From positions 120,001 through 152,000 of the forward strand of contig RQZE01000001.1 in assembly GCA_003858585.1 (NCBI GenBank): DNA of 32,000 nucleotides. Direction: 5' to 3'. Position 1 is the first letter of the stretch, and the number at the start of each line of letters is the position of its first letter. Below are positions 8,787 through 20,740 of this stretch, piece after piece. Made by a program: the position numbers and the translations under genes. The notes under the pieces are model-generated. The model had not been told where the DNA came from, searched no databases, and saw only the letters and a list, made by a program, of their open reading frames with translations. Source of the DNA: Erysipelotrichaceae bacterium OH741_COT-311 (lineage in GTDB: Bacteria; Bacillota_I; Bacilli_A; Erysipelotrichales; Erysipelotrichaceae).

Positions 8787-9350
8787 TTATTTACTTACAT
8801 TTGTACCAGCAATACGACCAAATACGATGATATCTGTAATCGCATTACCACCTAAACGGTTTGTTCCATGGATGCCACCAGTTACTTCACCAGCTGCAAA
8901 TAATCCTTTGATTACATTTCCATTTGTATCAATAACTTCCGCATGTTCATTGATCTTTAATCCACCCATTGTATGGTGTGTACTTGGAACTACTTTTTGA
9001 ATGTAGAATTTACCTTCACTAATTGGACGTAATTTACCACCTTTATTAAAGTCTTCATCTACTTCATCTTTAATTGATTCATTATATGCAGCAATTGTTT
9101 CTTGTAATTTTGTAGCATCAATACCATAGTGGTTTGCTGCATCTTCAAGAGTTTCAGCAACATAAATCAAATCATCTTTTTGCCATTGTTCAAATTCAAC
9201 TTTATGAAGTTGTGTCATATTTCCAACTGTTTCAATTTCTTGACCCCACACTAAATAAGCCACTTGACCGGTTTGGTTTAAAATCGCATTTGAAATATCA
9301 TCTCTATACACTTTTGCACTAGAGTCTCTAAAAAATATTTGTCCAAATAC
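8787..9350 (-). pseudogene. C-terminal ~190 aa remnant of an FAD flavocytochrome-c / fumarate (urocanate) reductase-type flavoprotein
   Basis: The ORF track's 174 aa start at a GTG. The same frame stays open upstream to 9488, but recognisable homology starts near 9350 (GQIFFRD...). Family motifs are HHTMGGLKIN and GLFAAGEVTGGIHGTNRLGGNAITDIIVFGR. The expected N-terminal FAD GxGxxG domain and ~300 aa are missing, and there is no RBS or promoter. Confidence 0.8.
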
Positions 9351-9359
9351 AGACTCATC

Positions 9360-9394
9360 TAGGCTTAATTTTTCTTGTATAACTTTTAAGCCTA
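9360..9394. other. 9-bp perfect stem-loop at the left island edge
   Basis: TAGGCTTAA-N17-TTAAGCCTA, 25 nt downstream of the stop of the 9419..9913 gene. No adjacent T-run, so it could be a terminator-like structure or a junction element. Confidence 0.4.
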
Positions 9395-9418
9395 ATCTCT
9401 CTGTTAAAACTTCATGAT

Positions 9419-9913
9419 CTACACTGTTAGCTTGTACATAGGCTTCTTTATAATATTTTTTATTATACTTGCTGCAATATCCTCTAGTTCATCTTTCTTA
9501 ATATACCTAACTAGCGAGTCACTCATAGGTGCAGCACTATTACTTTTACAAGAATACATTTCAACTTCATTAACTTTTAGGGAGTCAAGGTTATCTTTTA
9601 AATCCCCTTCACAATTTAACTTAAACCAAGCACAAGTAGATTCTTCTTTATCGGTATGATATCTATCCTTATCATAAACAGTAAACTCCACCTCACAAAC
9701 AATATCAAAAGCAATGCATGTTCCAGGTCTATCATCAACACTTACATATTTGACATTTATATCTTCTATATTAATTTCTCCTGGAGCAGTTATATTATAT
9801 AGTCTCAATGAAAGGTCATCTGCATCTTTATCATAGCAAAATTTCTCAATTTCACTCCAAATCAAATTATCAAATTTATTTTTAACATATTCGGTAAAAG
9901 ACCTCTTTTTCAT
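9419..9913 (-). CDS. Hypothetical protein (164 aa), first gene inside the island; possibly 3'-truncated
   Basis: Clean ORF with AAGGAG 10 nt upstream of the ATG. Acidic and Cys-containing, with no motif I can name. Its stop lies at the presumed island junction. Confidence 0.55.
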   Translation of the reverse strand: MKKRSFTEYVKNKFDNLIWSEIEKFCYDKDADDLSLRLYNITAPGEINIEDINVKYVSVDDRPGTCIAFDIVCEVEFTVYDKDRYHTDKEESTCAWFKLNCEGDLKDNLDSLKVNEVEMYSCKSNSAAPMSDSLVRYIKKDELEDIAASIIKNIIKKPMYKLTV

Positions 9914-10002
9914 GCAACATGACTCCTTACTTGTATATATCTATAATACATATATTGTACTAGATACATTTGATTTTGTCTTTAAGAATGAAATATAAAT
10001 TT

Positions 10003-10063
10003 GTATATGCGAATTTATGTTGTTCAGTATATGCAAAACTGATATAATTTACATAAACTGATA
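10003..10063 (+). promoter_or_regulatory. Promoter and candidate C-box region of the HTH-endonuclease operon
   Basis: Extended -10 TGATATAAT at 10040..10048. Direct repeats GTATATGC at 10003..10010 and 10027..10034. Direct repeats AAACTGATA at 10036..10044 and 10055..10063. TCAGT-N9-ACTGA dyad at 10024..10042. Confidence 0.45.
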
Positions 10064-10087
10064 AAAAAACTTGTAAAGGATTATTCA

Positions 10088-10294
10088 ATGAAAATTCAAT
10101 ATAACAAACTGTGGAAAATACTAATAGACAAAGAAATGAATAAAGTCGATCTAATCAAATCAGCTAAAATCAGTACCAGCTCTATGGCAAAGCTAAGCAA
10201 AAACATGTATGTTCGAATGGATGTTTTGATGAAAATCGCTGAAACGTTAGATTGTAAAATTGAAGATTTATTTGAAACTATAGAGGAGGAATAG
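10088..10294 (+). CDS. Small XRE/HTH_26-type DNA-binding protein, probable R-M controller (C) protein
   Basis: 68 aa with HTH MNKVDLIKSAKISTSSMAKLSKN. The stop TAG lies 2 nt before the endonuclease ATG, with GAGGAGGA inside its 3' end acting as the RBS (translational coupling). Confidence 0.7.
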   Translation: MKIQYNKLWKILIDKEMNKVDLIKSAKISTSSMAKLSKNMYVRMDVLMKIAETLDCKIEDLFETIEEE

Positions 10295-10296
10295 CT

Positions 10297-11487
10297 ATGG
10301 CATTCACAAATGGAGAAAAATCAAAGCATGGTAAAAACGCTCAATCCAATATAGAAAGCCTTTTGGAACACTGCAAAAATAAAGGCTATATTAAAGATTA
10401 TCAAAAAGACTTCCGTATAGGAAAAACAGGGTTTTCAAATTCAGGACAATTTTACGCACCTTTCTATGTTTCACTTAACAACTCTAAACATTGGCTAATT
10501 TATTCCACTACTTCCATGCGTACAGATAGAATAAAAGGACAACAATGGGATTCACTAAATATCAAGTTAATTGATAAATCTGTAGATAAAGTGTTTTTAG
10601 TATACTCTGACGGCATTGCTCAATCAGAAATAGATTCGTTCAAAAAACAAAATGATAAATACTTAACTAAATCCGAGTTTTCGTCTATAGATTCGATAAT
10701 TAGTCAAAATGAATTGTATAATTTACTTGAAGCATCTGCGACTTCATCGCTTACAAGTGGACAAATTAAAGATTTACAAGGAAGAAATTTTGAAAGTCTT
10801 GTTGCTACTACATTATCCAATACAGATAATTTACACAAATGGAAAACTAATAATAAAGTATCAACAGGTATGCATTATAATATTTTTAAAGCTATCGTTT
10901 CTTACCTAAATCTAGATAGCTCAGTTATAGAAAAAATTAAAGCAACTTCTGATAGTAAAGTTATAGGAAAACTCCCGTCAGGAGGCAATCCTAAAACAGA
11001 TGTAATGATGGATATTATATTTAAAGATAGCACACAATCAAGAGTGACGATAAGCTGTAAAAGATCCAGTGACAAAAAAGTAAGTGTTCATGAATATTCT
11101 GCTGAGTCATTTGCAAACATCTTAGATTCTAAAAATTCTAGTCTAAGATTGCTATTAGAGAATTTTCAAGCCACTCCTTCCCTATCAAGCTTTGGCGAAA
11201 CTAATATTGACGCTCTTACAAAAGAACTTGCTCCTTATTCTGATAAATTATCTCAATGGGTACTTGCTGGAATACATGGATACGGAGATAAAAATAAACA
11301 TTGGGCAAGCCATATATTAACATATGACAATAATGACAACACAATATCCTTTCATGATATAAATACCTATATTGAATTACTTAAGAATAATGGTGGTAGT
11401 GGTCATTTTGGCACATTATTTACTTGGACTTATCCTTCAAAAAAACGTGGCAAGAGTATTCAACTTAAATGTAAAATCTTAAAATAA
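10297..11487 (+). CDS. Putative type II restriction endonuclease (MspI/HpaII-like active-site spacing)
   Basis: 396 aa, convergent with a C5-MTase and preceded by a C-protein-like gene. The motif GGNPKTD-X17-S-C-K (D..SxK) has the same spacing I recall for the MspI D99/N117/K119 site. The N-terminal part has an STTSMRTDRIKGQQW segment, as in several REases. Confidence 0.6.
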   Translation: MAFTNGEKSKHGKNAQSNIESLLEHCKNKGYIKDYQKDFRIGKTGFSNSGQFYAPFYVSLNNSKHWLIYSTTSMRTDRIKGQQWDSLNIKLIDKSVDKVFLVYSDGIAQSEIDSFKKQNDKYLTKSEFSSIDSIISQNELYNLLEASATSSLTSGQIKDLQGRNFESLVATTLSNTDNLHKWKTNNKVSTGMHYNIFKAIVSYLNLDSSVIEKIKATSDSKVIGKLPSGGNPKTDVMMDIIFKDSTQSRVTISCKRSSDKKVSVHEYSAESFANILDSKNSSLRLLLENFQATPSLSSFGETNIDALTKELAPYSDKLSQWVLAGIHGYGDKNKHWASHILTYDNNDNTISFHDINTYIELLKNNGGSGHFGTLFTWTYPSKKRGKSIQLKCKILK

Positions 11488-11494
11488 CTTTGTA

Positions 11495-11537
11495 TAAAAA
11501 AATGCGACTTTTTTGGTTTAAAAGTCGCATTTTTTTC
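11495..11537. terminator. Bidirectional intrinsic terminator between the convergent R and M genes
   Basis: AAAAAAATGCGACTTTT-TTGGTTT-AAAAGTCGCATTTTTTT, flanked by A/T runs on both strands. Confidence 0.85.
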
Positions 11538-12733
11538 TATACAGTTTTTCTAATATTGGAAATCGCATTTTTCATAGCATCAGCTACTTCCTTCATCATA
11601 GGAACTGCTACAGAATTCCCAAATTGTCTATACATTTGTGTTCTAGAAACTGGAATAATAAAATCATCTGGAAATCCCATTAACCGTTTCAATTCAAGTT
11701 CACTAAATAGACGAACACCTGTATCGCCATCTTTTACGAATGTTCCTGTTAATCTCTGTATCTTATGATAACTTGCACAAAGTGTATTTACTTGTGTTTC
11801 TGAATCAAATCCAATAAGCTGAGGTCTTCCATCATCTTTTTTAAACAAATAACTTTCTTGTAAATGTTTTGATATAGAATATCCCTTAGGATTGTGTTCA
11901 AGAATAGAATTTACTGGTATTCTATGATTTCTGTCTCCCTCAGGAAACGAAAATTTTTCAATTCCAAGATCCTTCCTAAACCCTACAATAACGATACGCT
12001 CTCTTCGCTGAGGCAACCCAAAATCTTGTGCATCCAAAACCTTATAAAAAATAGAATAATCTAAATGGTTAAGATTATCCAATATTACTTTAAAAGTTCT
12101 GCCTCCATCATTTGTTAGTAAGCCCTTTACATTTTCTAACAAAAACATTTTAGGCATCTTCTTTTTTAGTATTCTTAAGACATCAAAAAACAAAGTCCCT
12201 TGAGTTTCATGAGCAAATCCCTGTCTTTTACCTATGTTACTAAACGGTTGGCATGGAAAGCCTGCTAATAAAACATCATGGTCTGGTATATCTTTTTCAT
12301 CTATTTTAGTTATATCACCAAAAGGAACTTCACCATAATTTGCCTCATAAGTTTTTGCAGCATACTTATCCCACTCAGAGCTAAACACACACTTTGTATT
12401 AGCATCTTCAAATCCTTTTCGAATTCCTCCAATTCCCGCAAATAAATCTATAAATGTTAGTTTGTCTGTATTATTCTCAAAAACTTTTTCGTTTTTTGCT
12501 CGTCTCTCTATTGGTTTCATATTTTCTGCTGCATTTGCTTTAAGTTGTTCCAACCCAGCACCAATTAATTCTACACATTTTTGACTAAATGTATTTGCAC
12601 CTTCAATATTTAATTGCATAATTTCTTCTATCTGATCTTCTGATAAGTATACATTACGCCCTTTTTTCTTATCAGAATTGGGAATAGATTTTCTTCCAGC
12701 CCCTTCTCTAAGTCCACCACGCATAGTTTTCAC
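11537..12733 (-). CDS. DNA (cytosine-5)-methyltransferase with a ~90-aa RHH-like N-terminal extension
   Basis: Motif I FIDLFAGIGG, IV GFPCQPFS, VI ENVKGL, VIII QRRERIVIVGF, X GNSVAVPMM. N-terminus: GGLREGAGRK...RNVYLSEDQIEEIMQL. The ORF track starts at GTG 12733; ATG 12724 (after GGAGAGG) is the more likely start. Confidence 0.95.
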   Translation of the reverse strand: MKTMRGGLREGAGRKSIPNSDKKKGRNVYLSEDQIEEIMQLNIEGANTFSQKCVELIGAGLEQLKANAAENMKPIERRAKNEKVFENNTDKLTFIDLFAGIGGIRKGFEDANTKCVFSSEWDKYAAKTYEANYGEVPFGDITKIDEKDIPDHDVLLAGFPCQPFSNIGKRQGFAHETQGTLFFDVLRILKKKMPKMFLLENVKGLLTNDGGRTFKVILDNLNHLDYSIFYKVLDAQDFGLPQRRERIVIVGFRKDLGIEKFSFPEGDRNHRIPVNSILEHNPKGYSISKHLQESYLFKKDDGRPQLIGFDSETQVNTLCASYHKIQRLTGTFVKDGDTGVRLFSELELKRLMGFPDDFIIPVSRTQMYRQFGNSVAVPMMKEVADAMKNAISNIRKTV

Positions 12734-12757
12734 TACCTCTCCTATAATCTTACGGAT

Positions 12758-12786
12758 ATTATACTATATTTTCATTGATTTTTCAA
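12758..12786 (-). promoter_or_regulatory. Near-consensus promoter of the methyltransferase gene
   Basis: Minus strand: TTGAAA (12786..12781), 17 nt, TATAAT (12763..12758). Confidence 0.65.
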
Positions 12787-12824
12787 GTTGTTTTATCAAT
12801 ATTCTCCCGTCCTATTTTCGTTTT

Positions 12825-12840
12825 ATTAGATGCATCTAAT
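12825..12840. promoter_or_regulatory. 16-bp perfect palindrome, candidate operator
   Basis: ATTAGATGCATCTAAT lies between the divergent MTase and XRE genes. It overlaps the -35 position of a plus-strand TATAAT at 12858..12863. Confidence 0.45.
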
Positions 12841-12908
12841 CCATTTTCCTCCCAAAATATAATAGAGAGTATTTTTTACTCTAAATATAAAAATGGAGGT
12901 AAAAACAT

Positions 12909-13265
12909 ATGATAATTGATTACTTACTCATTGGTATGAGGGTTCGTGAGATAAGGTTAAGTGCTAAGTTCACGCAGGAGATGCTTGCAGAACTATCGGA
13001 TTTATCACCAGTATATATATCAAACATTGAAAACAACAAGAAAAAGCCGAGTCTAGAATCTGTAGTAAAAATAGCAAATGCCCTTGGCATTACAGTAGAC
13101 GAACTGTTAACTGGAAATCTACTGTCTCACCCATCTGACTATCAGACAGATATCGATGCACTTATGTATGACTGTGACAAATATGAAAAGCGTTTATTTT
13201 ACGAAATTCTAAAGTTCACAAAGCATATCATCCGTTCCAACCAATGGTATATAGGTAAAAGATAA
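12909..13265 (+). CDS. XRE-family HTH transcriptional regulator
   Basis: 118 aa. HTH_3 core IREIRLSAKFTQEMLAELSDLSPVYISNIENNKKKPSLESVVKIANALGITVDELL, with GGAGG 9 nt upstream of the ATG. Confidence 0.85.
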   Translation: MIIDYLLIGMRVREIRLSAKFTQEMLAELSDLSPVYISNIENNKKKPSLESVVKIANALGITVDELLTGNLLSHPSDYQTDIDALMYDCDKYEKRLFYEILKFTKHIIRSNQWYIGKR

Positions 13266-13280
13266 GCCTATTTATCAAGA

Positions 13281-13327
13281 AACCATAAACCGGGGGATAG
13301 TCTCTTAACCTCTGGTTTATGGTTTTT
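13281..13327 (+). terminator. Hairpin with T-run after the XRE gene
   Basis: AACCATAAACC-N22-GGTTTATGGTT followed by TTT. An 11-bp stem with a large loop, sitting 55 nt upstream of the recombinase start. Confidence 0.5.
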
Positions 13328-13381
13328 CCATTATGAAAATAATATGATAAATATAAATTTCATAGGAAAGGAATCACGCTA

Positions 13382-15241
13382 ATGAACGAAAATGAAGTAA
13401 GACTTAAAACAACTGCAGACAAAAAACAAAAAATAAGAGAAAGGTATAAGGGAATCGACTTGGATAAACTTGATGTAATTCCAGCTGTTCCTGTAGAGGA
13501 TATTTTCAGCTTAACTGCGTCTAAAAGAGTTGCTGTCTATGCTAGGGTATCTACCGATGATCCAAACCAGACTTCATCCTATGAATTACAGAAAAATCAT
13601 TACACCGATATGATAAAAAGATACCCTAATTGGAGTCTTGTAGATATTTATGCTGATGAAGGAATCTCAGGTACTTCACTTCAGCATCGAAATTCTTTTA
13701 TGCGAATGATGGATGATTGTAATAATGGAAAAATAGACCTTATCGTAACAAAAAGTGTATCCAGATTTGCAAGAAATATAGTTGACTGTATTGATTATGT
13801 GAGAAAACTTAAGAATATGAATCCGCCTATAAGTATATTCTTTGAGTCAGAAAATCTTCATACTTTGGACTCTCATAGCGAAATGACCCTTGCCTTCATG
13901 GCCACCATCGCCCAAGAAGAAAGTCATACTAAAAGTGAAGTCATGAACTCATCCATAGAAATGCGTTTTAAGAGAGGCCTTTTCCTAACTCCCCCGCTAC
14001 TTGGTTATGACCATGATGAAGATAGAAACCTAGTCATAAATGAAGATGAAGCGAAAGTTGTCCGTCTCATCTTCTTTATGTACCTATACGGATATAGCTG
14101 TCAAATCATAGCAGAAACACTAACGCAATACGGATGTAAAACTAAAAAAGGAAATACAAGTTGGTCTTCCGGTAGCATCTTACAAATTCTTCAAAATGAA
14201 AGACACTGTGGTGATGTTCTTGCTAGAAAAACCTATACACCAAACTTCTTAGACCATAAATCCAAGAAAAACAAAAAGAACAGAAATCAGTATAGGCAAG
14301 TAGGTCATCATGAAAGTATCGTATCAAGAGATGACTTCATAGCTGTTCAGCATCTCATAAACAACTCAAAATATGGAAACAAGGGTATTCTCCCCTCTCT
14401 TCATGTTATAAAAGAAGGATCACTTCTCGGATTTGTATCTATCAATCCCAGATGGGCAGGATTTAAGCCCGAGGAGTACACTGAAGCCTGCTTATCAGCT
14501 TATGAAGAATTAGATGGGGAATATATCCAAAATAACAAGATAACTGCTCTAGAGGGCGATTTCGACCTTAGAGGATATGAAATAGCACATGGCCAGTTCT
14601 TCAATTCAAGTGGTCGAGCAGCAATCAATATTTCTTCAAGTGAGATTACCTTTTCTGCAGAAACTGTAAGAAAGTTTGGAGATATTTCTCATGTAGAACT
14701 TCTGATACATCCTGAAAAAATGATACTTGCTGTAAGAGCTTCTACCCCATCCAATAATCAAGCTGTTATATGGTCAAAAAAGAAAAATGGGAAAACACTA
14801 CCAAAGATTATTCGTGGCAAAGCATTTCTCCCTACCATATTCAGACTGTTAAACTGGAAAACAAAATGTAAATATAAAATGCTTGGCATCCTTCATGAAA
14901 AGGAGAATGAGAAAGTTCTCCTTTTTGACCTAAAAGACACGGAGATAATAATGCCCAGTTCTTTTGTAACACCATCAAAAGAAACCTCCATGAAACCTTT
15001 TACTTCCGATACAGGGCAGAAAGTACTTGCATATCCTGCAGACTGGAGTGAGGGTTTCGGCAAAAAATACTATAGCCATGCAAAAGAAAAGGAAATCGAA
15101 GAAGACGCTTTATCCGAATGGGATGTTACTACAGAAGGTTTGCCATATAAAGAACCGGAACTAAAGGTAACGGACAGAAATACCTTAGATAAAGAAATCA
15201 AAAATATCATGAGCGAAATGGAGGTTAATACTGATGCTTGA
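13382..15241 (+). CDS. Large serine recombinase (resolvase/invertase N-domain plus recombinase domain) with an atypical C-terminus
   Basis: 619 aa. Catalytic region RVAVYARVSTDDPNQTSSYELQ, then LIVTKSVSRFARN. Recombinase-domain motif LQNERHCGDVLARKTY. There is no CxxC pair anywhere, so no canonical zinc-ribbon domain. Confidence 0.92.
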   Translation: MNENEVRLKTTADKKQKIRERYKGIDLDKLDVIPAVPVEDIFSLTASKRVAVYARVSTDDPNQTSSYELQKNHYTDMIKRYPNWSLVDIYADEGISGTSLQHRNSFMRMMDDCNNGKIDLIVTKSVSRFARNIVDCIDYVRKLKNMNPPISIFFESENLHTLDSHSEMTLAFMATIAQEESHTKSEVMNSSIEMRFKRGLFLTPPLLGYDHDEDRNLVINEDEAKVVRLIFFMYLYGYSCQIIAETLTQYGCKTKKGNTSWSSGSILQILQNERHCGDVLARKTYTPNFLDHKSKKNKKNRNQYRQVGHHESIVSRDDFIAVQHLINNSKYGNKGILPSLHVIKEGSLLGFVSINPRWAGFKPEEYTEACLSAYEELDGEYIQNNKITALEGDFDLRGYEIAHGQFFNSSGRAAINISSSEITFSAETVRKFGDISHVELLIHPEKMILAVRASTPSNNQAVIWSKKKNGKTLPKIIRGKAFLPTIFRLLNWKTKCKYKMLGILHEKENEKVLLFDLKDTEIIMPSSFVTPSKETSMKPFTSDTGQKVLAYPADWSEGFGKKYYSHAKEKEIEEDALSEWDVTTEGLPYKEPELKVTDRNTLDKEIKNIMSEMEVNTDA

Positions 15242-15890
15242 GCAAACACTTCCGGAAAATATCGACAATAAAAAGAAACTTCCGAAAATAGAAGTAACTG
15301 AGACAGAATCTTTTAACTATGATGGATTTCAGGTAGTACGTGGAGAATTCTTCTCGCACATCTTTGAACCATCATTTACCCTAAATAAAAGCAAGGTTTC
15401 TGTAAATAAAGCGTGCATCCGCAAATTACCCGATATATAGTATGTTCAGATTCTTGTTAATTCTGCAGAAAAGAAACTGGCTGTAAGACCATGTCTTGAA
15501 GAGGAGAAAGACTCTGTGAAATGGTGCTCTTCCGGAGAAAAGAAAAACCCCAAACAAATAACCTGCAGAATCTTCTATGCCAAAGTTATAGAGCTGATGG
15601 GTTGGAATCCTGACAACAGATATAAACTGCTTGGAAAACTAATGAAATCAAATGATGAGTACCTTTTTATCTTTGATTTAAATAACCCTGAAATATATAA
15701 GCCAAAGGTAAGAAACGATGGTAAATCTGTTATATCAAGAACACCCTCCTACCCTTCAAGCTGGCAAAATCAATTCGGTGTTACAGTTGAAGAACATAAA
15801 AAGAATCTACAAGTAAATATATTTGATGGGGTTGCTGTATTTGGAATTTTAGAAAATAGCAATGAAGCACCATCAGGAAGCGAGGTATAA
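15234..15890 (+). pseudogene. Paralog of the recombinase C-terminal domain, interrupted by one in-frame TAG (15438..15440)
   Basis: ORF-track entries 15234..15440 and 15516..15890 share a frame with no other stop between them. The start overlaps the recombinase stop (ATGCTTGA). The joined product aligns with recombinase residues ~395-530. Confidence 0.6.
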
Positions 15891-15891
15891 C

Positions 15892-16263
15892 ATGAATGCT
15901 TATGAAAATCAAAAGCCTATTGTATGTATAGATCTGAAGAAAGACAGGATCAGAATTCACAAAACCACTCTTCATATGATTGGCGATCCTTCTTTTATAA
16001 ATCTTTTAGTAAATCCTAAAGAGAAACTTATCGCTATAAAAAAATCCTCTGCTAAAGACAAATCAGCACTTAGGATAAGAAGTAACCAATTAGATGATGG
16101 AAACTGTGTGGAATTCGGATGCAGAGACCTTATTTTACTTCTAAAGGATATAGATAATTCATGGCAAATAAACTCCTCTTATAGAATATATGGAAAATAT
16201 AACAAAGGAGAATGCTTGGCACAGTTCTCTATAAAAGATTCCATACCAACGGAGGAAATATAA
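15892..16263 (+). CDS. Second free-standing paralog of the recombinase C-terminal domain
   Basis: I prefer ATG 15892 (GAGG 6 nt upstream, one nt after the previous stop) over the ORF-track start at 15862. GDPSFINLLVNPKEKLIAIKKS aligns with GDISHVELLIHPEKMILAVRAS of the recombinase. Confidence 0.65.
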   Translation: MNAYENQKPIVCIDLKKDRIRIHKTTLHMIGDPSFINLLVNPKEKLIAIKKSSAKDKSALRIRSNQLDDGNCVEFGCRDLILLLKDIDNSWQINSSYRIYGKYNKGECLAQFSIKDSIPTEEI

Positions 16264-16267
16264 TCCT

Positions 16268-17206
16268 ATGAATAATGTAGAATGGAATTTACCAAAACTG
16301 GAAAAAGATGAAGAATTCATGTTTCTCATACAGCCTTGCTCAGAATCTGCTTATACAAAACTTGAGGAAAGTATCGTTGATGATGGCTGCCTATCTCCAA
16401 TCACTATATGGAATGGAATTATAGTTGACGGTCATAAAAGATATGATATTTGTAAAATATGGGGTATCCCCTTTAACTTAAAACAAATACAGGCATCTAC
16501 AAAGGCAGACGTATATTATCAGATATGTTCTGAACAGCTAAAACGGGAAGACCTCACACGAGAAATGCGTAAATATCTCATAGGAAGATCCTATCAAGCT
16601 GAGGTTAAAAAGAACGCAAATTTATATGTGCGTTCTAACGAAATGAAAGATAGCAAAAGTCATCCCTTTATTCCTCCTAAAGCCTACAACAAACAAGAAA
16701 TATCCCATAAGATTGGAAATACATTTCATATAGCACCCGGCACAGTTTTTAAATATGAAACCTATACCAAAATAATAAATAGTCTAAGAGACAAAGACCT
16801 TAACTTAGCAGAAAATATACTATCTGGTAAAATACGAGTTTCTCATGAAAATATGGTAGAACTTAATAGACTTCCTTCTCATGAAGTAAAAAGTCTAAAT
16901 CAATATATCACTGAAAATGGTATTGCACATATAAATTATGCTGTAATAAGGCAGTCACTTAAATGGAAATATACTTATACGGAAAAGTCTGAATCCCGAA
17001 GAAGAAAACAGGAGTCATCAAAGCTTGCTGCAATAAAAAAGATGCCTGCATATGATCCTGAGCCAATCTATCAAGTGTTTCTTTCACCTCCCCATCTTGG
17101 CGAAGTATTATTGACCGAGCAAGGCTTAATACAGATTTTTCAAAGGCATCTAAAAATATTAAAGAGAAAACACTATATCAGCTTAGACTACTTAAGTTGT
17201 CGATAA
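16268..17206 (+). CDS. ParB/Srx-superfamily N-terminal domain protein
   Basis: 312 aa. DGCLSPITIWNGIIVDGHKRYDICKIWG matches the ParB-like GxxxP(I/V)xV...DGhxR core. The remainder is helical and basic. Confidence 0.7.
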   Translation: MNNVEWNLPKLEKDEEFMFLIQPCSESAYTKLEESIVDDGCLSPITIWNGIIVDGHKRYDICKIWGIPFNLKQIQASTKADVYYQICSEQLKREDLTREMRKYLIGRSYQAEVKKNANLYVRSNEMKDSKSHPFIPPKAYNKQEISHKIGNTFHIAPGTVFKYETYTKIINSLRDKDLNLAENILSGKIRVSHENMVELNRLPSHEVKSLNQYITENGIAHINYAVIRQSLKWKYTYTEKSESRRRKQESSKLAAIKKMPAYDPEPIYQVFLSPPHLGEVLLTEQGLIQIFQRHLKILKRKHYISLDYLSCR

Positions 17207-17242
17207 AAGAATTAGAAGATGTTATAAAGGAGGATACTACAA

Positions 17243-18100
17243 ATGGAAGACCTACTGAATTATGTGCCGAATGTTCACTTCGAACAGATACCAATAAAGA
17301 ACCTGGTTTCTAACCAAAATTATCAAAGGAATTTATCCACTAGGCACGTTCAACGAGCCGCTGCTAACTTTGACTTATATCAGGTAAATCCTGTAAAAGT
17401 AAGCCGTAGAGATGGAATAAATTATGTCTTTAATGGTCAACACACCATAGAAATTATTGCCCTTGTTTCAGGTTCTAGAGAAACTCCTGTATGGTGCATG
17501 ATATATGATGAGCTGGAGTATACCGAAGAAGCTGATATTTTTGCAAACCAAATGAAATATGTAAAGCCACTACTGCCCTATGAAACTTTTATAGCAAGTA
17601 TAGAGGCTGGAAGTGATAAGCATCTCATCATTCAGGATTTAGTCGAATCCTATAACCTTACTCTATCATCAGCCAAAATACCCGGTGGCATCTGTGCTAT
17701 TTCCACTTTAGAAACAATATATGATAAACATGGCTTTCATGTCTTAGACCATGTCCTAAGGCTCCTAATTGGCACTTGGGAGGGTGAACCTAATTCCCTT
17801 AGTGCAAATATGCTAAATGGTGTAGCAAGACTTGTGGTGGCTTATGGAGACCAAATAAAGGATACCATTTTTAAAGAAAGACTTGGCAGAGTATCCATCA
17901 AAACTCTAAGTCAGACCGCCAAAGACAGACGTGTTGGCTCTCTTGGCTATGCTGAAGCTATCCTCATTTTTTATAACAAACGTTCCAAAGTTCATCTCAC
18001 TTGGGATAAGCTATATGCAAAAAAGACTCCGAGGAAAAACAAGGCTGAAGATTTGATGGAATATGAACCACCTGATGATTCTGATGATGAAACCATCTAG
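17243..18100 (+). CDS. Second ParB-like / DGQHR-like domain protein
   Basis: 285 aa. IPIKNLVSNQNYQRNLSTRHVQRAAANFDLYQVNPVKVSRRDGINYVFNGQHT resembles ParB/DndB-type DGQHR cores. Acidic C-terminal tail, with AAGGAGG as RBS. Confidence 0.6.
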   Translation: MEDLLNYVPNVHFEQIPIKNLVSNQNYQRNLSTRHVQRAAANFDLYQVNPVKVSRRDGINYVFNGQHTIEIIALVSGSRETPVWCMIYDELEYTEEADIFANQMKYVKPLLPYETFIASIEAGSDKHLIIQDLVESYNLTLSSAKIPGGICAISTLETIYDKHGFHVLDHVLRLLIGTWEGEPNSLSANMLNGVARLVVAYGDQIKDTIFKERLGRVSIKTLSQTAKDRRVGSLGYAEAILIFYNKRSKVHLTWDKLYAKKTPRKNKAEDLMEYEPPDDSDDETI

Positions 18101-18122
18101 TATAGTTAAATATGTAATAATA

Positions 18123-18160
18123 AAATAACAGGGATTATTTTTTCTATTCCCCTGTTATTT
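18123..18160. terminator. Bidirectional terminator between convergent operons
   Basis: AAATAACAGGG-N16-CCCTGTTATTT, lying between the stop at 18100 (+) and the stop at 18166 (-). Confidence 0.7.
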
Positions 18161-18165
18161 TATCG

Positions 18166-19149
18166 TTATTCGTTATTCATTCTTTGTTTGGAAATTTCAC
18201 TAGCTTCATGAATCGTATCAGCAGTCAATAATGTATCAAGCATTGCCCATTTGCGACCAGATGCGTATATGTTTCCTGTCTTAACGACTTTTGATGGTAT
18301 AATTGGTTTCCCAAGGCTGTACACAAAATGCTCATATTTATCTTCCACATTAGGCATTTCCTCAATCTCATCATGAAGATTTTTTACTATCGAATAGCTT
18401 TCAATATGATAAATTGACTGTAATCTTCCTCCATACCGAAAACCTATATAATTAGGTGGTTCTTTAGGCCAACCATTAATTCCAAATGGGTGAAAATATT
18501 TCATTTTCTTTTCTACTAATTCTATCCATGTCAGATCACAATTTTCTGGTTTTGCAGTTGAAAGTGAAACCACATATACCCAATTTGATTCTTTTGCCTG
18601 CATAGTCATTATTCCTCCCAAATATCTCATTAATTCTTTTAACAAATTTTTTTGTGATATACTAGAACCAACTTTTGCATAATTTGCTAGTTCATATATT
18701 CTCTTCCAGGACAAATGATTTACTGGAATATCATTTATAACCTTAAAAGGCAAATATGCATTTACATAATCTTCACTACACTCTGACATTGAAATAATAG
18801 CTTTATATGAGACTGGACTTTCTATAATATTTCGTCTTTGTGAATATAAAGCAAGTTGCTCAGCACCTGGTAAAATCCAGCCCCTTTTGGCTTCAATAAT
18901 TATATAAAATGAAGTATCATCAGTTATTTCCAAATCCGTTATACCTTTATTCTTCTCAAATTCCTGGTACTTAATCCTAACATTTTGTGTATTAATCTCT
19001 AACGACATCACTTCATTGATTACTGCTTTAAGAAATTCGGGACAGCGTGCTAATGCCCAAGCAATACTTTTAGTTATGTCATTCTCAAGATTTCCTATTA
19101 ACTGAAAAACACTACTTACTTCAGTTCCATATGCAACTAACTCTGACAT
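18166..19149 (-). CDS. PD-(D/E)XK-fold nuclease-like protein with an unassigned C-terminal domain
   Basis: 327 aa. GITD72LEITDDTSFYIIIE86AK88RGW gives D-X13-E-x-K. C-terminal ~140 aa: YFHPFGINGWPKEPPNYIGFRYGGRLQSIYHIESY, with no family I can name. Strong RBS GGAGAAGGAGAT. Confidence 0.6.
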   Translation of the reverse strand: MSELVAYGTEVSSVFQLIGNLENDITKSIAWALARCPEFLKAVINEVMSLEINTQNVRIKYQEFEKNKGITDLEITDDTSFYIIIEAKRGWILPGAEQLALYSQRRNIIESPVSYKAIISMSECSEDYVNAYLPFKVINDIPVNHLSWKRIYELANYAKVGSSISQKNLLKELMRYLGGIMTMQAKESNWVYVVSLSTAKPENCDLTWIELVEKKMKYFHPFGINGWPKEPPNYIGFRYGGRLQSIYHIESYSIVKNLHDEIEEMPNVEDKYEHFVYSLGKPIIPSKVVKTGNIYASGRKWAMLDTLLTADTIHEASEISKQRMNNE

Positions 19150-19172
19150 ATCTCCTTCTCCTTGAATACCTC

Positions 19173-19685
19173 TTAAAGCTTGGGCTTTGGCAAATCAATA
19201 TCAAATTTACCACCTAACGCTGCGGCACCTAATCCTACGATTGAAATCACAGCTACTGTCCCTGCACCTATAACTTTCCAATAAAACGCTTTATTTTCAC
19301 TATCTTTCTTTTCTGCCATCCGAGCAATTTCCATCATATTATCCAAATAATATTTTTTCTCTTCAAAAGAAATCTCCTCTTGAGAAACACATTTTTCTAG
19401 TGCGGAAAGTACCTTGTCATATAAATTAAAACAATCTTTGCTACTTTCTTTGCTTGCATCTAATGTTTTCTCTAAAACTGTTCTATATTCCTTAAAAGCT
19501 TCTAATGACATCTTCGCAAATTCAGGGAACTGTTCAATTGCTTTTTTTGCAACTTCTGGATCCATATTTTGTAGCATTGATGCGAAGTTAATAACTTTAT
19601 CTTTAGTCATATGCCTAAAATCTGGTATATCTAATTGCTTTAATACTTCCACTTCACTAAGTTGTTTACTCATATTCTTCCTCAC
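19173..19685 (-). CDS. Helical protein with a single C-terminal transmembrane anchor
   Basis: 170 aa from GTG. The likely real start is ATG 19673 (GAGGA upstream), overlapping the upstream stop as ATGAGTAA. The TM segment is FYWKVIGAGTVAVISIVGLGAAALGG near the C-terminus; the rest is charged and helical. Confidence 0.6.
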   Translation of the reverse strand: MRKNMSKQLSEVEVLKQLDIPDFRHMTKDKVINFASMLQNMDPEVAKKAIEQFPEFAKMSLEAFKEYRTVLEKTLDASKESSKDCFNLYDKVLSALEKCVSQEEISFEEKKYYLDNMMEIARMAEKKDSENKAFYWKVIGAGTVAVISIVGLGAAALGGKFDIDLPKPKL

Positions 19686-20148
19686 CTTCTATAGGATTTA
19701 CATTAATTTCTTCAAAATTAAATGCCCCCATTGGATATTCGCTTATGTATCCTGAAACACGAAATTGTCTACCACAATTTTTGCAGTAATTATCTTCTGT
19801 ATCAAATTCATATATGGTTTCTGGACCCATTTGCCTCTCATAGGAACTTTCATCACATTCATCAACTAAATCTATTTTATTTTTACTTGAACAATATGGG
19901 CAGTCAACAATACGTTCCAAACTAATACCTTCAGCATATTCTTCATAATAAGAGTCTTGATTTTCATTCATATCAAACTCTCTCATCCTGAGCATACCAT
20001 ATGCTTCTTTCAAAGCTGCACGAAAAACATCTGATTTATTTTTTAATTCTTTTCTATCACATACATACTGCAACATCTGTTCTTCTTCATCATTAACCCG
20101 AACACGATACATTTTGTCTCTAGCATCATCTATTTTAGGTCTCGCCAT
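19666..20148 (-). CDS. Ribbon-helix-helix (CopG/MobC-like) N-domain fused to a CxxC...CxxC zinc ribbon
   Basis: 160 aa. RPKIDDARDKMYRVRVNDEEEQMLQYVCDRKELKNKSDVFRAALKEAY has the RHH pattern. The zinc ribbon is CPYC-X41-CKNC. Acidic tail, with AGGAG 10 nt upstream. Confidence 0.65.
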   Translation of the reverse strand: MARPKIDDARDKMYRVRVNDEEEQMLQYVCDRKELKNKSDVFRAALKEAYGMLRMREFDMNENQDSYYEEYAEGISLERIVDCPYCSSKNKIDLVDECDESSYERQMGPETIYEFDTEDNYCKNCGRQFRVSGYISEYPMGAFNFEEINVNPIEGEEEYE

Positions 20149-20173
20149 TGTAACAAACTCCTTTCTTTATTAT

Positions 20174-20215
20174 TGTAGCCACACTTATTATAAATGTAGC
20201 TACAATAATTGTCAA
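20174..20215 (-). promoter_or_regulatory. Consensus sigma-A promoter with two palindromic operator-like sites
   Basis: Minus strand: TTGACA (20215..20210), 17 nt, TATAAT (20192..20187). The perfect palindrome TGTAGCTACA (20195..20204) sits in the spacer, and the near-copy TGTAGCCACA (20174..20183) sits at about +1. Confidence 0.65.
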
Positions 20216-20235
20216 GTTTTTGTTGCCACAAAAAC
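20216..20235 (-). terminator. Hairpin directly after the SymE-like stop
   Basis: GTTTTTGT-TGCC-ACAAAAAC, an 8-bp stem abutting the -35 box of the downstream promoter. Confidence 0.5.
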
Positions 20236-20424
20236 TCAATTTGTATTTTTCTTTATAGAAATAATCAATTTCCCATTCTGACAATCAACATTATATTTCT
20301 GCCCTACTTTAAATCCAAATTCCTCTAACCATTTACCTTTCATCATGATGGTAGGTGTATCATTATATTTATTTCCACTCATTCCATAGACCTTCAAAGT
20401 TCTATTATTCCTCTCCATAATCAA
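20236..20424 (-). CDS. SymE-family (AbrB/SpoVT fold) type I toxin-like protein
   Basis: 62 aa. PTIMMKGKWLEEFGFKVGQKYNVDCQNGKLII matches the SymE signature (L.G.WLeeaGF..G..v.V....G.L.I). Confidence 0.72.
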   Translation of the reverse strand: MIMERNNRTLKVYGMSGNKYNDTPTIMMKGKWLEEFGFKVGQKYNVDCQNGKLIISIKKNTN

Positions 20425-20590
20425 CTCCTTTTCTAAAATGCTATCGTTAAATTATGCACCCTATTAAAAATTTTCACCTGTGTAATTTATATGTAATTAT
20501 TTTTGTTTTACGATTTTTAGCTATTTTATGCTCATTAAACTTCCTAAAATCTCTTGAAATACAGCTATTTCACATACGCACCCTAAAATA

Positions 20591-20740
20591 TCATTGTATC
20601 CATTTGCGTGTGGCGTTGTTTCCTTGTCCACTACCAGCGTATGTACCATCTTTTATACCACTACTTTTCGTTGTTGTATTACAAGCAACAAGTGAGATTA
20701 GCATAAAAAACGATAGTAAACCTACTACAATTTTTTTCAT
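20591..20740 (-). pseudogene. N-terminal stub of a lipoprotein / FMN-bind flavoprotein, probably the 5' end of the gene whose 3' end is at 8787..9350
   Basis: My translation is MKKIVVGLLSFFMLISLVACNTTTKSSGIKDGTYAGSGQGNNATRKWIQ*. GGAGGAAAGG is the RBS. It has a lipobox LVAC, and DGTYxGxGxG is the usual start of FMN_bind domains. The sequence diverges after GNN (about 20610). Confidence 0.5.

Follow-up and report, generated by a model that had tools for sequence, protein, structure and literature searches.

A large serine recombinase without a zinc ribbon, encoded next to two free-standing copies of its own C-terminal domain

The DNA analysed here, a stretch of 32,000 nucleotides from Erysipelotrichaceae bacterium OH741_COT-311 (assembly GCA_003858585.1, contig RQZE01000001.1, positions 120,001 to 152,000 of the forward strand; hereafter, the window), contains the gene for a large serine recombinase followed by two small open reading frames (ORFs), ORF2 and ORF3. 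Both small genes encode free-standing copies of the C-terminal domain of the recombinase, which we call domain X, and the three genes are the core of a conserved module that also includes ORF4 and ORF5 downstream. The recombinase, its parts and the two small genes are as follows.

13382–15241, + strand: serine recombinase of 619 amino acids (Pfam, PHROGs, NCBIfam, PDB, AlphaFold2 model)
Residues 1–48: N-terminal extension of the recombinase
Residues 50–199 (nucleotides 13529–13978): catalytic domain (Pfam Resolvase, E 1e-25)
Residues 221–327 (nucleotides 14042–14362): recombinase domain (PF07508), after a long helix (Pfam Recombinase, E 4e-24)
Residues 328–394: conserved linker
Residues 395–560 (nucleotides 14564–15061, + strand): domain X
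Residues 561–619: acidic helical tail
15234–15890, + strand: ORF2, free-standing domain X protein, of 218 amino acids in relatives (BLASTP, hhalign)
15892–16263, + strand: ORF3, short free-standing domain X core, of 123 amino acids from the conserved start

The catalytic domain, which the original prediction had described as canonical, and the recombinase domain are recovered by Pfam at the E values given above; residues R55, S57, R128 and R131 are invariant among the 36 homologues compared, and the enzyme appears to be catalytically intact. Its closest solved chain among PDB sequences is 3g13, the catalytic domain of a C. difficile conjugative-transposon recombinase (E 2.5e-41). PHROGs and NCBIfam assign only the first ca. 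330 residues, to integrases, CcrB/CcrC and XisF, and the fold matches of the AlphaFold2 model are limited to the catalytic and recombinase domains of known enzymes, the best being 3g13, 9dxh/9dxd (SPbeta), 9iu2 (Bxb1) and 3bvp.

In canonical large serine recombinases, a zinc ribbon with an embedded coiled coil reads the outer motif of the recombination site and sets directionality. The window enzyme had been predicted to lack this region and to contain no CxxC pair, and both statements hold. Its seven cysteines form no CxxC and no Cx2-4C pair, a conserved cysteine cluster was not found among the 36 homologues, and neither Zn_ribbon_recom (PF13408) nor DUF4368 matches it in Pfam even at E 0.1, the sole further match at that threshold being a sub-threshold one to DUF5889 (14 bits, with a cut-off of 27 bits). 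Profile searches, named beforehand as a possible refutation, detected no zinc ribbon or coiled coil in the protein. When compared by BLASTP with the two zinc-ribbon recombinases that adjoin a homologous module in locus L010 (35–43% identity), the alignments stop at residues 315–323, which is the end of the recombinase domain, and the AlphaFold2 model has a beta-rich domain at the position of the zinc ribbon and coiled coil. This region of the recombinase is replaced by the uncharacterised domain X.

The claim that the C-terminal domain recurs in the next two genes was likewise borne out. The last 239 residues of the recombinase align by BLASTP with ORF2, read through an internal TAG codon, over 183 amino acids (26% identity, E 4e-24), and profile-profile comparison with hhalign gives a probability of 99.7% (E 2.5e-27). 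ORF3 matches both the recombinase (BLASTP E 2e-6; hhalign 95.8%) and ORF2 (BLASTP E 8e-7; hhalign 95.4%). The three copies are diverged, with 22–28% identity, and are all basic, with isoelectric points of 8.9–9.5 (9.5 for the copy in the recombinase). A domain had been proposed at residues ca. 395–530; the domain itself is there and the proposed end is not, since the region common to the recombinase and ORF2 comprises ca. 180 residues, beginning with an RG.FF strand and ending at a YPxxWxxxFG motif around residue 560. ORF3 consists only of the ca. 100-residue core. AlphaFold2 models domain X as beta-rich with two helices, at a predicted local distance difference test score (pLDDT) of about 80–87 over residues 410–520 of the recombinase.

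Profile and fold searches with the C-terminal domain and the small proteins, as suggested with the original prediction, leave their paralogy firm and match no known family or fold. The domain X family gave no match in Pfam (even at E 10, with 21 members), PHROGs, NCBIfam, PADLOC or PDB sequences, and no protein of the module matched a known defence system in PADLOC. The AbrB/SpoVT/MazE swapped-hairpin fold, suspected from ITFSAETVRKFG..VELLIHPEK.ILAVRA, was discarded after hhalign comparisons with the AbrB N-domain gave probabilities of 0.4% and 0.1%; AbrB or MraZ was also absent among the Foldseek matches to the ORF2 model and in Pfam at E 10. A test for an internal beta-beta-alpha-beta-beta duplication was negative, and the recurrent matches to PCNA/beta-clamp were too weak (E ≥ 0.04, TM about 0.13) for a clamp-like fold to be kept.

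The three genes are tightly coupled, as had been claimed. ORF2, with its ATG at 15234, overlaps the recombinase stop codon (15239–15241), and the conserved start of ORF3 is the ATG at 15892, one base past the stop of ORF2 and preceded by a GAGG box. The equivalent methionine is the start in about two-thirds of the aligned ORF3 homologues; the longest ORF3 frame begins at an ATG inside ORF2 (15862), which is not the conserved start. ORF2 has a conserved tail of its own and is the best conserved of the three proteins, with 60–67% identity where domain X of the recombinase shows 45%, and it is not a minor accessory. The coupling extends to ORF4, which starts 4 nucleotides after the ORF3 stop. The remaining features of the module in the window are the following.

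12909–13265, + strand: XRE-type helix-turn-helix (HTH) regulator heading the module (Pfam HTH_3, E 8e-18)
13280–13325, + strand: hairpin (inverted repeat) between the XRE and recombinase genes, then a T-run and promoter-like TATGAAAA...TATGATAAAT
16268–17206, + strand: ORF4, ParB-like protein (weak matches only, to PHROG ParB-like families at E 1e-4 to 5e-3)
17243–18100, + strand: ORF5, ParB/Srx-fold protein of family DUF6551 (Pfam DUF6551, E 8e-32; PHROG ParB-like, E 1e-17)

The hairpin between the XRE and recombinase genes is kept in all lineages of the module (window, L001, L010, L046, L054 and others); its stems differ among lineages yet still pair, as in AAACCATAAACC/GGTTTATGGTTT compared with AATAGACTATAGG/CCGTATAGTCTATT. 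Downstream of it come a T-run and then TATGAAAA with a TATAAT-like box, so that, judging from its layout, the region looks like a terminator with a separate promoter, or like a regulatory RNA element. The hairpin probably ends one transcription unit, with the recombinase operon starting after it. Divergent HTH pairs occur upstream in L001, L004 and L010, in a cI/Cro-like layout, and a second HTH gene is frequent in relatives. As for ORF5, phage DUF6551 fusions have been reported to bind CTP or ATP (bioRxiv 10.1101/2025.10.10.680097).

A profile search with domain X (clusters at 50% identity, E ≤ 1e-3) retrieved 3194 clusters, most of them free-standing proteins of 200–300 amino acids and some of them fused proteins of 610–640 amino acids; the members of odd length that we checked were truncated recombinases or probable merges of gene calls. 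The representative protein P0384 (834 amino acids) contains a phage minor-tail (tape-measure-like) domain at residues 191–390 and domain X at 630–819; the fusion is either genuine or the product of two gene calls run together. Scanning one genome per species, we confirmed 222 ORF2 loci, and hence at least 222 species genomes with the module, mainly in Lachnospiraceae, with some in Oscillospiraceae and other Clostridia. For the best 80 of these 222 loci, every ORF was scored with custom profiles, and 69 of the 80 contained the complete set of domain X recombinase, ORF2, ORF3, ORF4 and ORF5, while in the remaining 11 the locus runs off a contig end or its recombinase gene is disrupted. Of the 80, 75 have an XRE homologue immediately upstream of the recombinase, and homologues of ORF4 and ORF5 are present in 78 and 75, respectively. 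Genes for the recombinase, ORF2 and ORF3 are also kept in the same order in a distant Subdoligranulum replicon, in which ORF2 is only 24% identical and homologues of ORF4 and ORF5 were not detected with phmmer. The idea had been exposed to refutation by small genes that are not conserved next to homologous recombinases; wherever the sequence allows the check, including this distant Subdoligranulum locus, they are found beside them.

Pairwise ratios of nonsynonymous to synonymous substitution rates (dN/dS) of 0.03–0.12 indicate purifying selection on the recombinase, ORF2 and ORF3, and the module is inherited as a unit under such selection. In three loci the recombinase gene is split or truncated while ORF2–ORF5 are intact (L015, 4739–7978; L034, 1507–3524; L072, 1678–2997), a decay that runs opposite to that of the window copy described below. 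The module is absent from all 60 genomes searched in the order to which the window belongs, and therefore arrived in this genome by transfer. A search of the window genome with ORF2 found domain X confined to the three genes of the window; the genome contains a second large serine recombinase, in a 625-amino-acid frame (contig C20, 103160–103609; G000).

The module resides in diverse mobile elements. Among phages it was found in 19 records with ORF2 as query and in 20 with the C-terminus of the recombinase; nearly all of them are Candidatus Heliusvirales phages of Lachnospiraceae, in which the module adjoins two zinc-ribbon recombinases and lysis genes. In the streptococcal phage phi1207.3, Orf2 (370 amino acids) is 41% identical to residues 14–358 of the window recombinase and ends in the linker, before domain X, and Orf3 (138 amino acids), located 14 nucleotides downstream, is a domain X protein (hhalign 97%, E 3e-11). 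This split form indicates that domain X can exist as a separate chain beside the enzyme core. The paper describing the element annotates Orf2 only as a resolvase and gives no function to Orf3 (PMC4260502); phi1207.3 carries three serine recombinases, with orf56/orf57, at the other end, named as the likely enzymes of integration (PMC4260502).

A module 95% identical to that of the window occurs in KG125, within an element with phi1207.3-like replication genes and a 647-amino-acid serine recombinase at its far side. The genes of this element (L112/L113, 797000–826000) include those for a family A polymerase, a primase, an SNF2 helicase, an S-adenosylmethionine synthetase-like protein, a ParB-methylase and a small-terminase-like protein; structural genes were not seen in the 34 kb examined, and the element may be a satellite-like derivative, to judge from this gene content. 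A second type of module is located in Anaerostipes in a 19.5-kb insert (G063 C1, about 457480–476980; L116 and L037) that splits the Tad-pilus ATPase gene tadA/cpaF at a conserved stretch coding for DMLQA; insertions at this target occur in many genera (Blautia, Dorea, Coprococcus, Anaerostipes). In its left part, this insert contains three tyrosine recombinases, DUF6262 and TnpV as a Tn554-like set, and no other large serine recombinase was found in the Anaerostipes genome. The possibility that the recombinase is the element's sole integrase was discarded here, because the element also carries the three tyrosine recombinases. The module usually lies beside other integrases, and its recombinase, therefore, need not insert the element; from these gene arrangements, the module recurs as an additional recombinase unit, located in the cargo arm of elements equipped with other integrases.

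In the window, the module is part of an island with one recognisable end.

20593–20620, + strand: intact right end, composed of the 19-bp half-site ATTGTATCCATTTGCGTGT, then GGCGTTG, then TT at the host junction
9302–9303, no strand: left junction of the island, a deletion scar (alignment of the sister genome G001 with the window)

The right-end sequence, ...ATTGTATCCATTTGCGTGTGGCGTTGTT, is common to the window, L004, L005, L006 and L014, and abuts five different flanks, so that it is a true element end; the half-site is placed 7 bp from the TT junction. The sister genome G001 has an intact gene for a flavoprotein of ca. 590 amino acids, and the window has 9303–20615 instead of 1126 bp of that gene. 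The empty site in G001 reads ...GGACCATTGTTTCC..., with the host site TTGTTT at the junction. Since no inverted copy of the right-end half-site is present within the window, the left junction is a deletion scar and not an attachment site; the element's own left end and the 1126 bp of the host gene were lost there. A complete inverted-repeat site of 54 bp (19 + 16 + 19 bp, with a central TT) exists in L004 and, at a second place, in KG125 and has the structure ATTGTATCCATTTGCGTGT-GGCGTTGTTCATTGGG-ACACGCAAATGAATACAAT (L004, 11117–11170). Its size and layout are those expected for a large serine recombinase site. The site consists of the right end of the island joined to an arm resembling a left end, is flanked on either side by conserved sequence, and may represent an unrecombined attachment site or a tandem junction. 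The KG125 site (L109, 1466–1519; KG125 918756–918809) lies at a distance of 128 kb from the single domain X module of that genome. Multi-targeting serine recombinases have been reported to have TT cores and many targets (PMC10083194).

ORF2 of the window is interrupted by an in-frame TAG (15438–15440), where the closest orthologues have GAA (Glu). We rejected TAG as a recoded codon, given that TAG ends 5 of 22 well-defined genes of the window, including grpE. Apart from this codon, ORF2 shows no relaxation of selection in comparison with L014 (dN/dS 0.055), so that the break must either be recent or reflect a sequencing error. With ORF2 interrupted and one end of the island gone, this copy of the module is a relic and probably inactive, and the island appears to be what is left of the arm in which a temperate element, akin to phi1207.3 and to Ca. 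Heliusvirales phages, carried its cargo.

Two stretches of the island vary among relatives. The palindrome TTAGATGCATCTAA (window, 12826–12839; L014, 5593–5606; L004, 5454–5467) lies within about 12 bp of the point at which similarity among the window, L014 and L004–L006 begins. To the left of it, the cargo is entirely different in each, with an MspI-like restriction-modification system in the window and other restriction-modification systems elsewhere; the palindrome could be an operator that also marks a boundary of cargo exchange. Between ORF5 and the right end, the window contains a cassette (18166–20620) of genes for 327, 170 and 160 amino acids followed by a SymE-like gene; other genes replace it in L004–L006, with only the last ca. 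380 bp to the end in common, which makes this a second cargo slot within the element.

We consider it most likely that the free copies are accessory or regulatory subunits that assemble with the recombinase where it sits on its DNA sites, and give this a probability of roughly 0.45 as the best explanation of the module as a whole. Domain X would take the role of the zinc ribbon by binding the outer part of the recombination site and/or by linking subunits, and ORF2 and ORF3 would join the recombinase on DNA through this domain and determine the timing, the direction or the sites of recombination. Their role would be comparable to that of a directionality factor, with an origin in the duplication of a portion of the enzyme. 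Release of the regulator would turn the module on, which would then recombine sites of the arm carrying it, in a reaction that could be arm mobility, resolution or rearrangement. Co-inheritance, purifying selection and the split form of phi1207.3 are all consistent with accessory factors of this type.

Several observations weigh against this assembly of enzyme and free copies. The fold of domain X is without a recognisable relative, as Foldseek returned none for the ORF2 model at E < 1e-3 in PDB and BFVD, and the model is only moderately confident (pLDDT 66). The split form of phi1207.3 might be decayed rather than a working copy. Other integrases are resident with the module, namely two zinc-ribbon recombinases in Heliusvirales and phi1207.3, the 647-amino-acid enzyme in KG125 and the three tyrosine recombinases in Anaerostipes, and we delimited no island with this recombinase alone and both ends known; an empty site for L013 was found in none of the 25 related genomes searched, and in KG125 no left-end repeat was seen within 42 kb of the right end. 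Additionally, the full site occurs in KG125 as a second copy that has no domain X gene in its vicinity, and the attachment-like site could belong to a co-resident integrase. For these two reasons, the co-resident integrases and this second copy, we leave the attachment-like site unassigned to the window enzyme.

The free copies could instead be inhibitors that occupy sites, or cap domain X of the enzyme, and so hold recombination down, in the way that the truncated transposase-derived regulators IS1 InsA, IS3-family OrfA and Tn5 Inh do. They carry domain X without the catalytic part and are encoded together with the enzyme, as such an inhibitor would be, but ORF2 is the most conserved of the three proteins (60–67% versus 45%) and ends in a conserved tail peculiar to it, pointing to a positive and specific role, and a pure inhibitor made from one operon in a fixed ratio with its target gives little control; we find this explanation unlikely, although the data fit it as they fit assembly with the enzyme. 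A further alternative puts the module to the maintenance of an excised or replicating circle, where the recombinase, acting at internal sites, would either resolve multimers or bring about rearrangements of the cargo arm, the domain X proteins would bind sites in an architectural role, for which the accessory sites bound in resolvase systems are a model, and the ParB-fold NTP-binding proteins would organise or partition DNA. That the carrier elements have integrases of their own speaks for it, as do the two ParB-fold proteins that accompany the module (ORF4 in 78/80 and ORF5 in 75/80 loci), the binding of nucleotides by DUF6551 fusions, the replication genes of phi1207.3-type elements, and the cargo beside the module, which differs between elements otherwise 86–95% identical, with similarity starting at the palindrome at 12826–12839. 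Against these stand the facts that no repeated internal site, ParA partner or parS-like array was found, the sole recombination-type site being the element end, and that the modules of the window, L001 and L013 are in short islands without replication genes nearby, so that we give a maintenance unit little chance.

Even less probable, in our opinion, is that domain X serves to dock proteins, either the ParB-like ones or a host factor, with the free copies as adaptors or competitors. The failure to detect a known DNA-binding fold in domain X and the strict linkage of the ParB-like genes to the module in Lachnospiraceae loci would agree with docking, but all three copies of the domain are basic, the Subdoligranulum locus keeps the recombinase, ORF2 and ORF3 with no homologue of ORF4 or ORF5 detected by phmmer, and Orf2 and Orf3 of phi1207.3 are followed directly by resistance genes, without a ParB-like pair. 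Returning to the free copies as subunits that assemble with the recombinase, a stronger form of the idea, which we regard as possible and still doubtful, is that domain X and its free copies constitute a previously undescribed, multi-subunit mode of serine recombination. Whereas a single chain normally combines site reading and control of directionality in its zinc ribbon and coiled coil, these tasks would here be spread over the enzyme and two paralogous partners, with ParB-fold nucleotide switches possibly gating their assembly. If true, large serine recombinases would have solved the problem of directionality a second time, independently, and the solution would be present in widespread gut phages; we take Ca. 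Heliusvirales to be among the most widespread phages of the human gut.

Large serine recombinases are major tools for genome engineering, and current understanding of their direction and choice of sites rests on the zinc-ribbon/coiled-coil region. A large clade in nature that has dispensed with this region and works beside free copies of the replacement domain would show another route of control, possibly a more modular one, with separate and swappable subunits. The function of the module also bears on how temperate elements keep and move their cargo arms, since the module is common and occurs both in Ca. Heliusvirales gut phages and in the phi1207.3/Tn1207.1 arm, which carries macrolide-resistance genes. 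For the genome of the window, the practical message is modest, because what it contains is a decayed remnant.

The enzyme family is known, and the literature labels the proteins "resolvase" and "hypothetical protein"; for the architecture with paralogous partners we found no functional description, our searches on zinc-ribbon-less serine integrases, phi1207.3 orf2 and DUF6551 having retrieved no functional study of the module. The closest system is phi1207.3/Tn1207.1 (AY657002), whose Orf2 shares the N-terminal extension and the linker motif (G..L..F....P.W) within its 41% identity, and in which a domain X gene is directly downstream and both genes are in a cargo-rich arm near one prophage end, with two more serine recombinases, both of the zinc-ribbon type, at the other. 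Tn1207.1 is what remains of an arm of the phi1207.3 prophage, and the window island appears to be a comparable remnant of its own element. They differ in that the enzyme core and domain X of phi1207.3 are separate proteins, with one free domain X gene and no ParB-like pair; we found no experiment on Orf2 or Orf3 in the literature on this element.

The window enzyme has the same catalytic and recombinase domains as SprA of SPbeta, Bxb1, phiC31, A118/LI and TP901-1, and control of the reaction by a small partner protein is an established model for serine integrases. Such directionality factors, which bind the integrase and switch it from integration to excision, belong to no single defining sequence family. 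Unlike these, it has neither a zinc ribbon nor a coiled coil; and, whereas we know of no directionality factor that is a copy of an integrase domain, its partners are paralogues of its own C-terminal domain. It resembles TnpX/TndX-type enzymes (the DUF4368 clade) in its closest solved catalytic domain, 3g13, and in the TT junction with five different flanks (PMC10083194). It differs from them in the lack of a DUF4368 match, and the junctions may be the work of another enzyme. To our knowledge, TnpX and TndX act alone, without paralogous partner genes. IS1 InsA and IS3-family OrfA offer an analogy, of function only, in that a non-catalytic protein with one domain of the recombinase is encoded alongside it. 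These proteins belong to DDE transposases and arise from the same gene by frameshifting or alternative starts, whereas the copies in the window are separate, diverged genes (22–28% identity) beside a serine recombinase.

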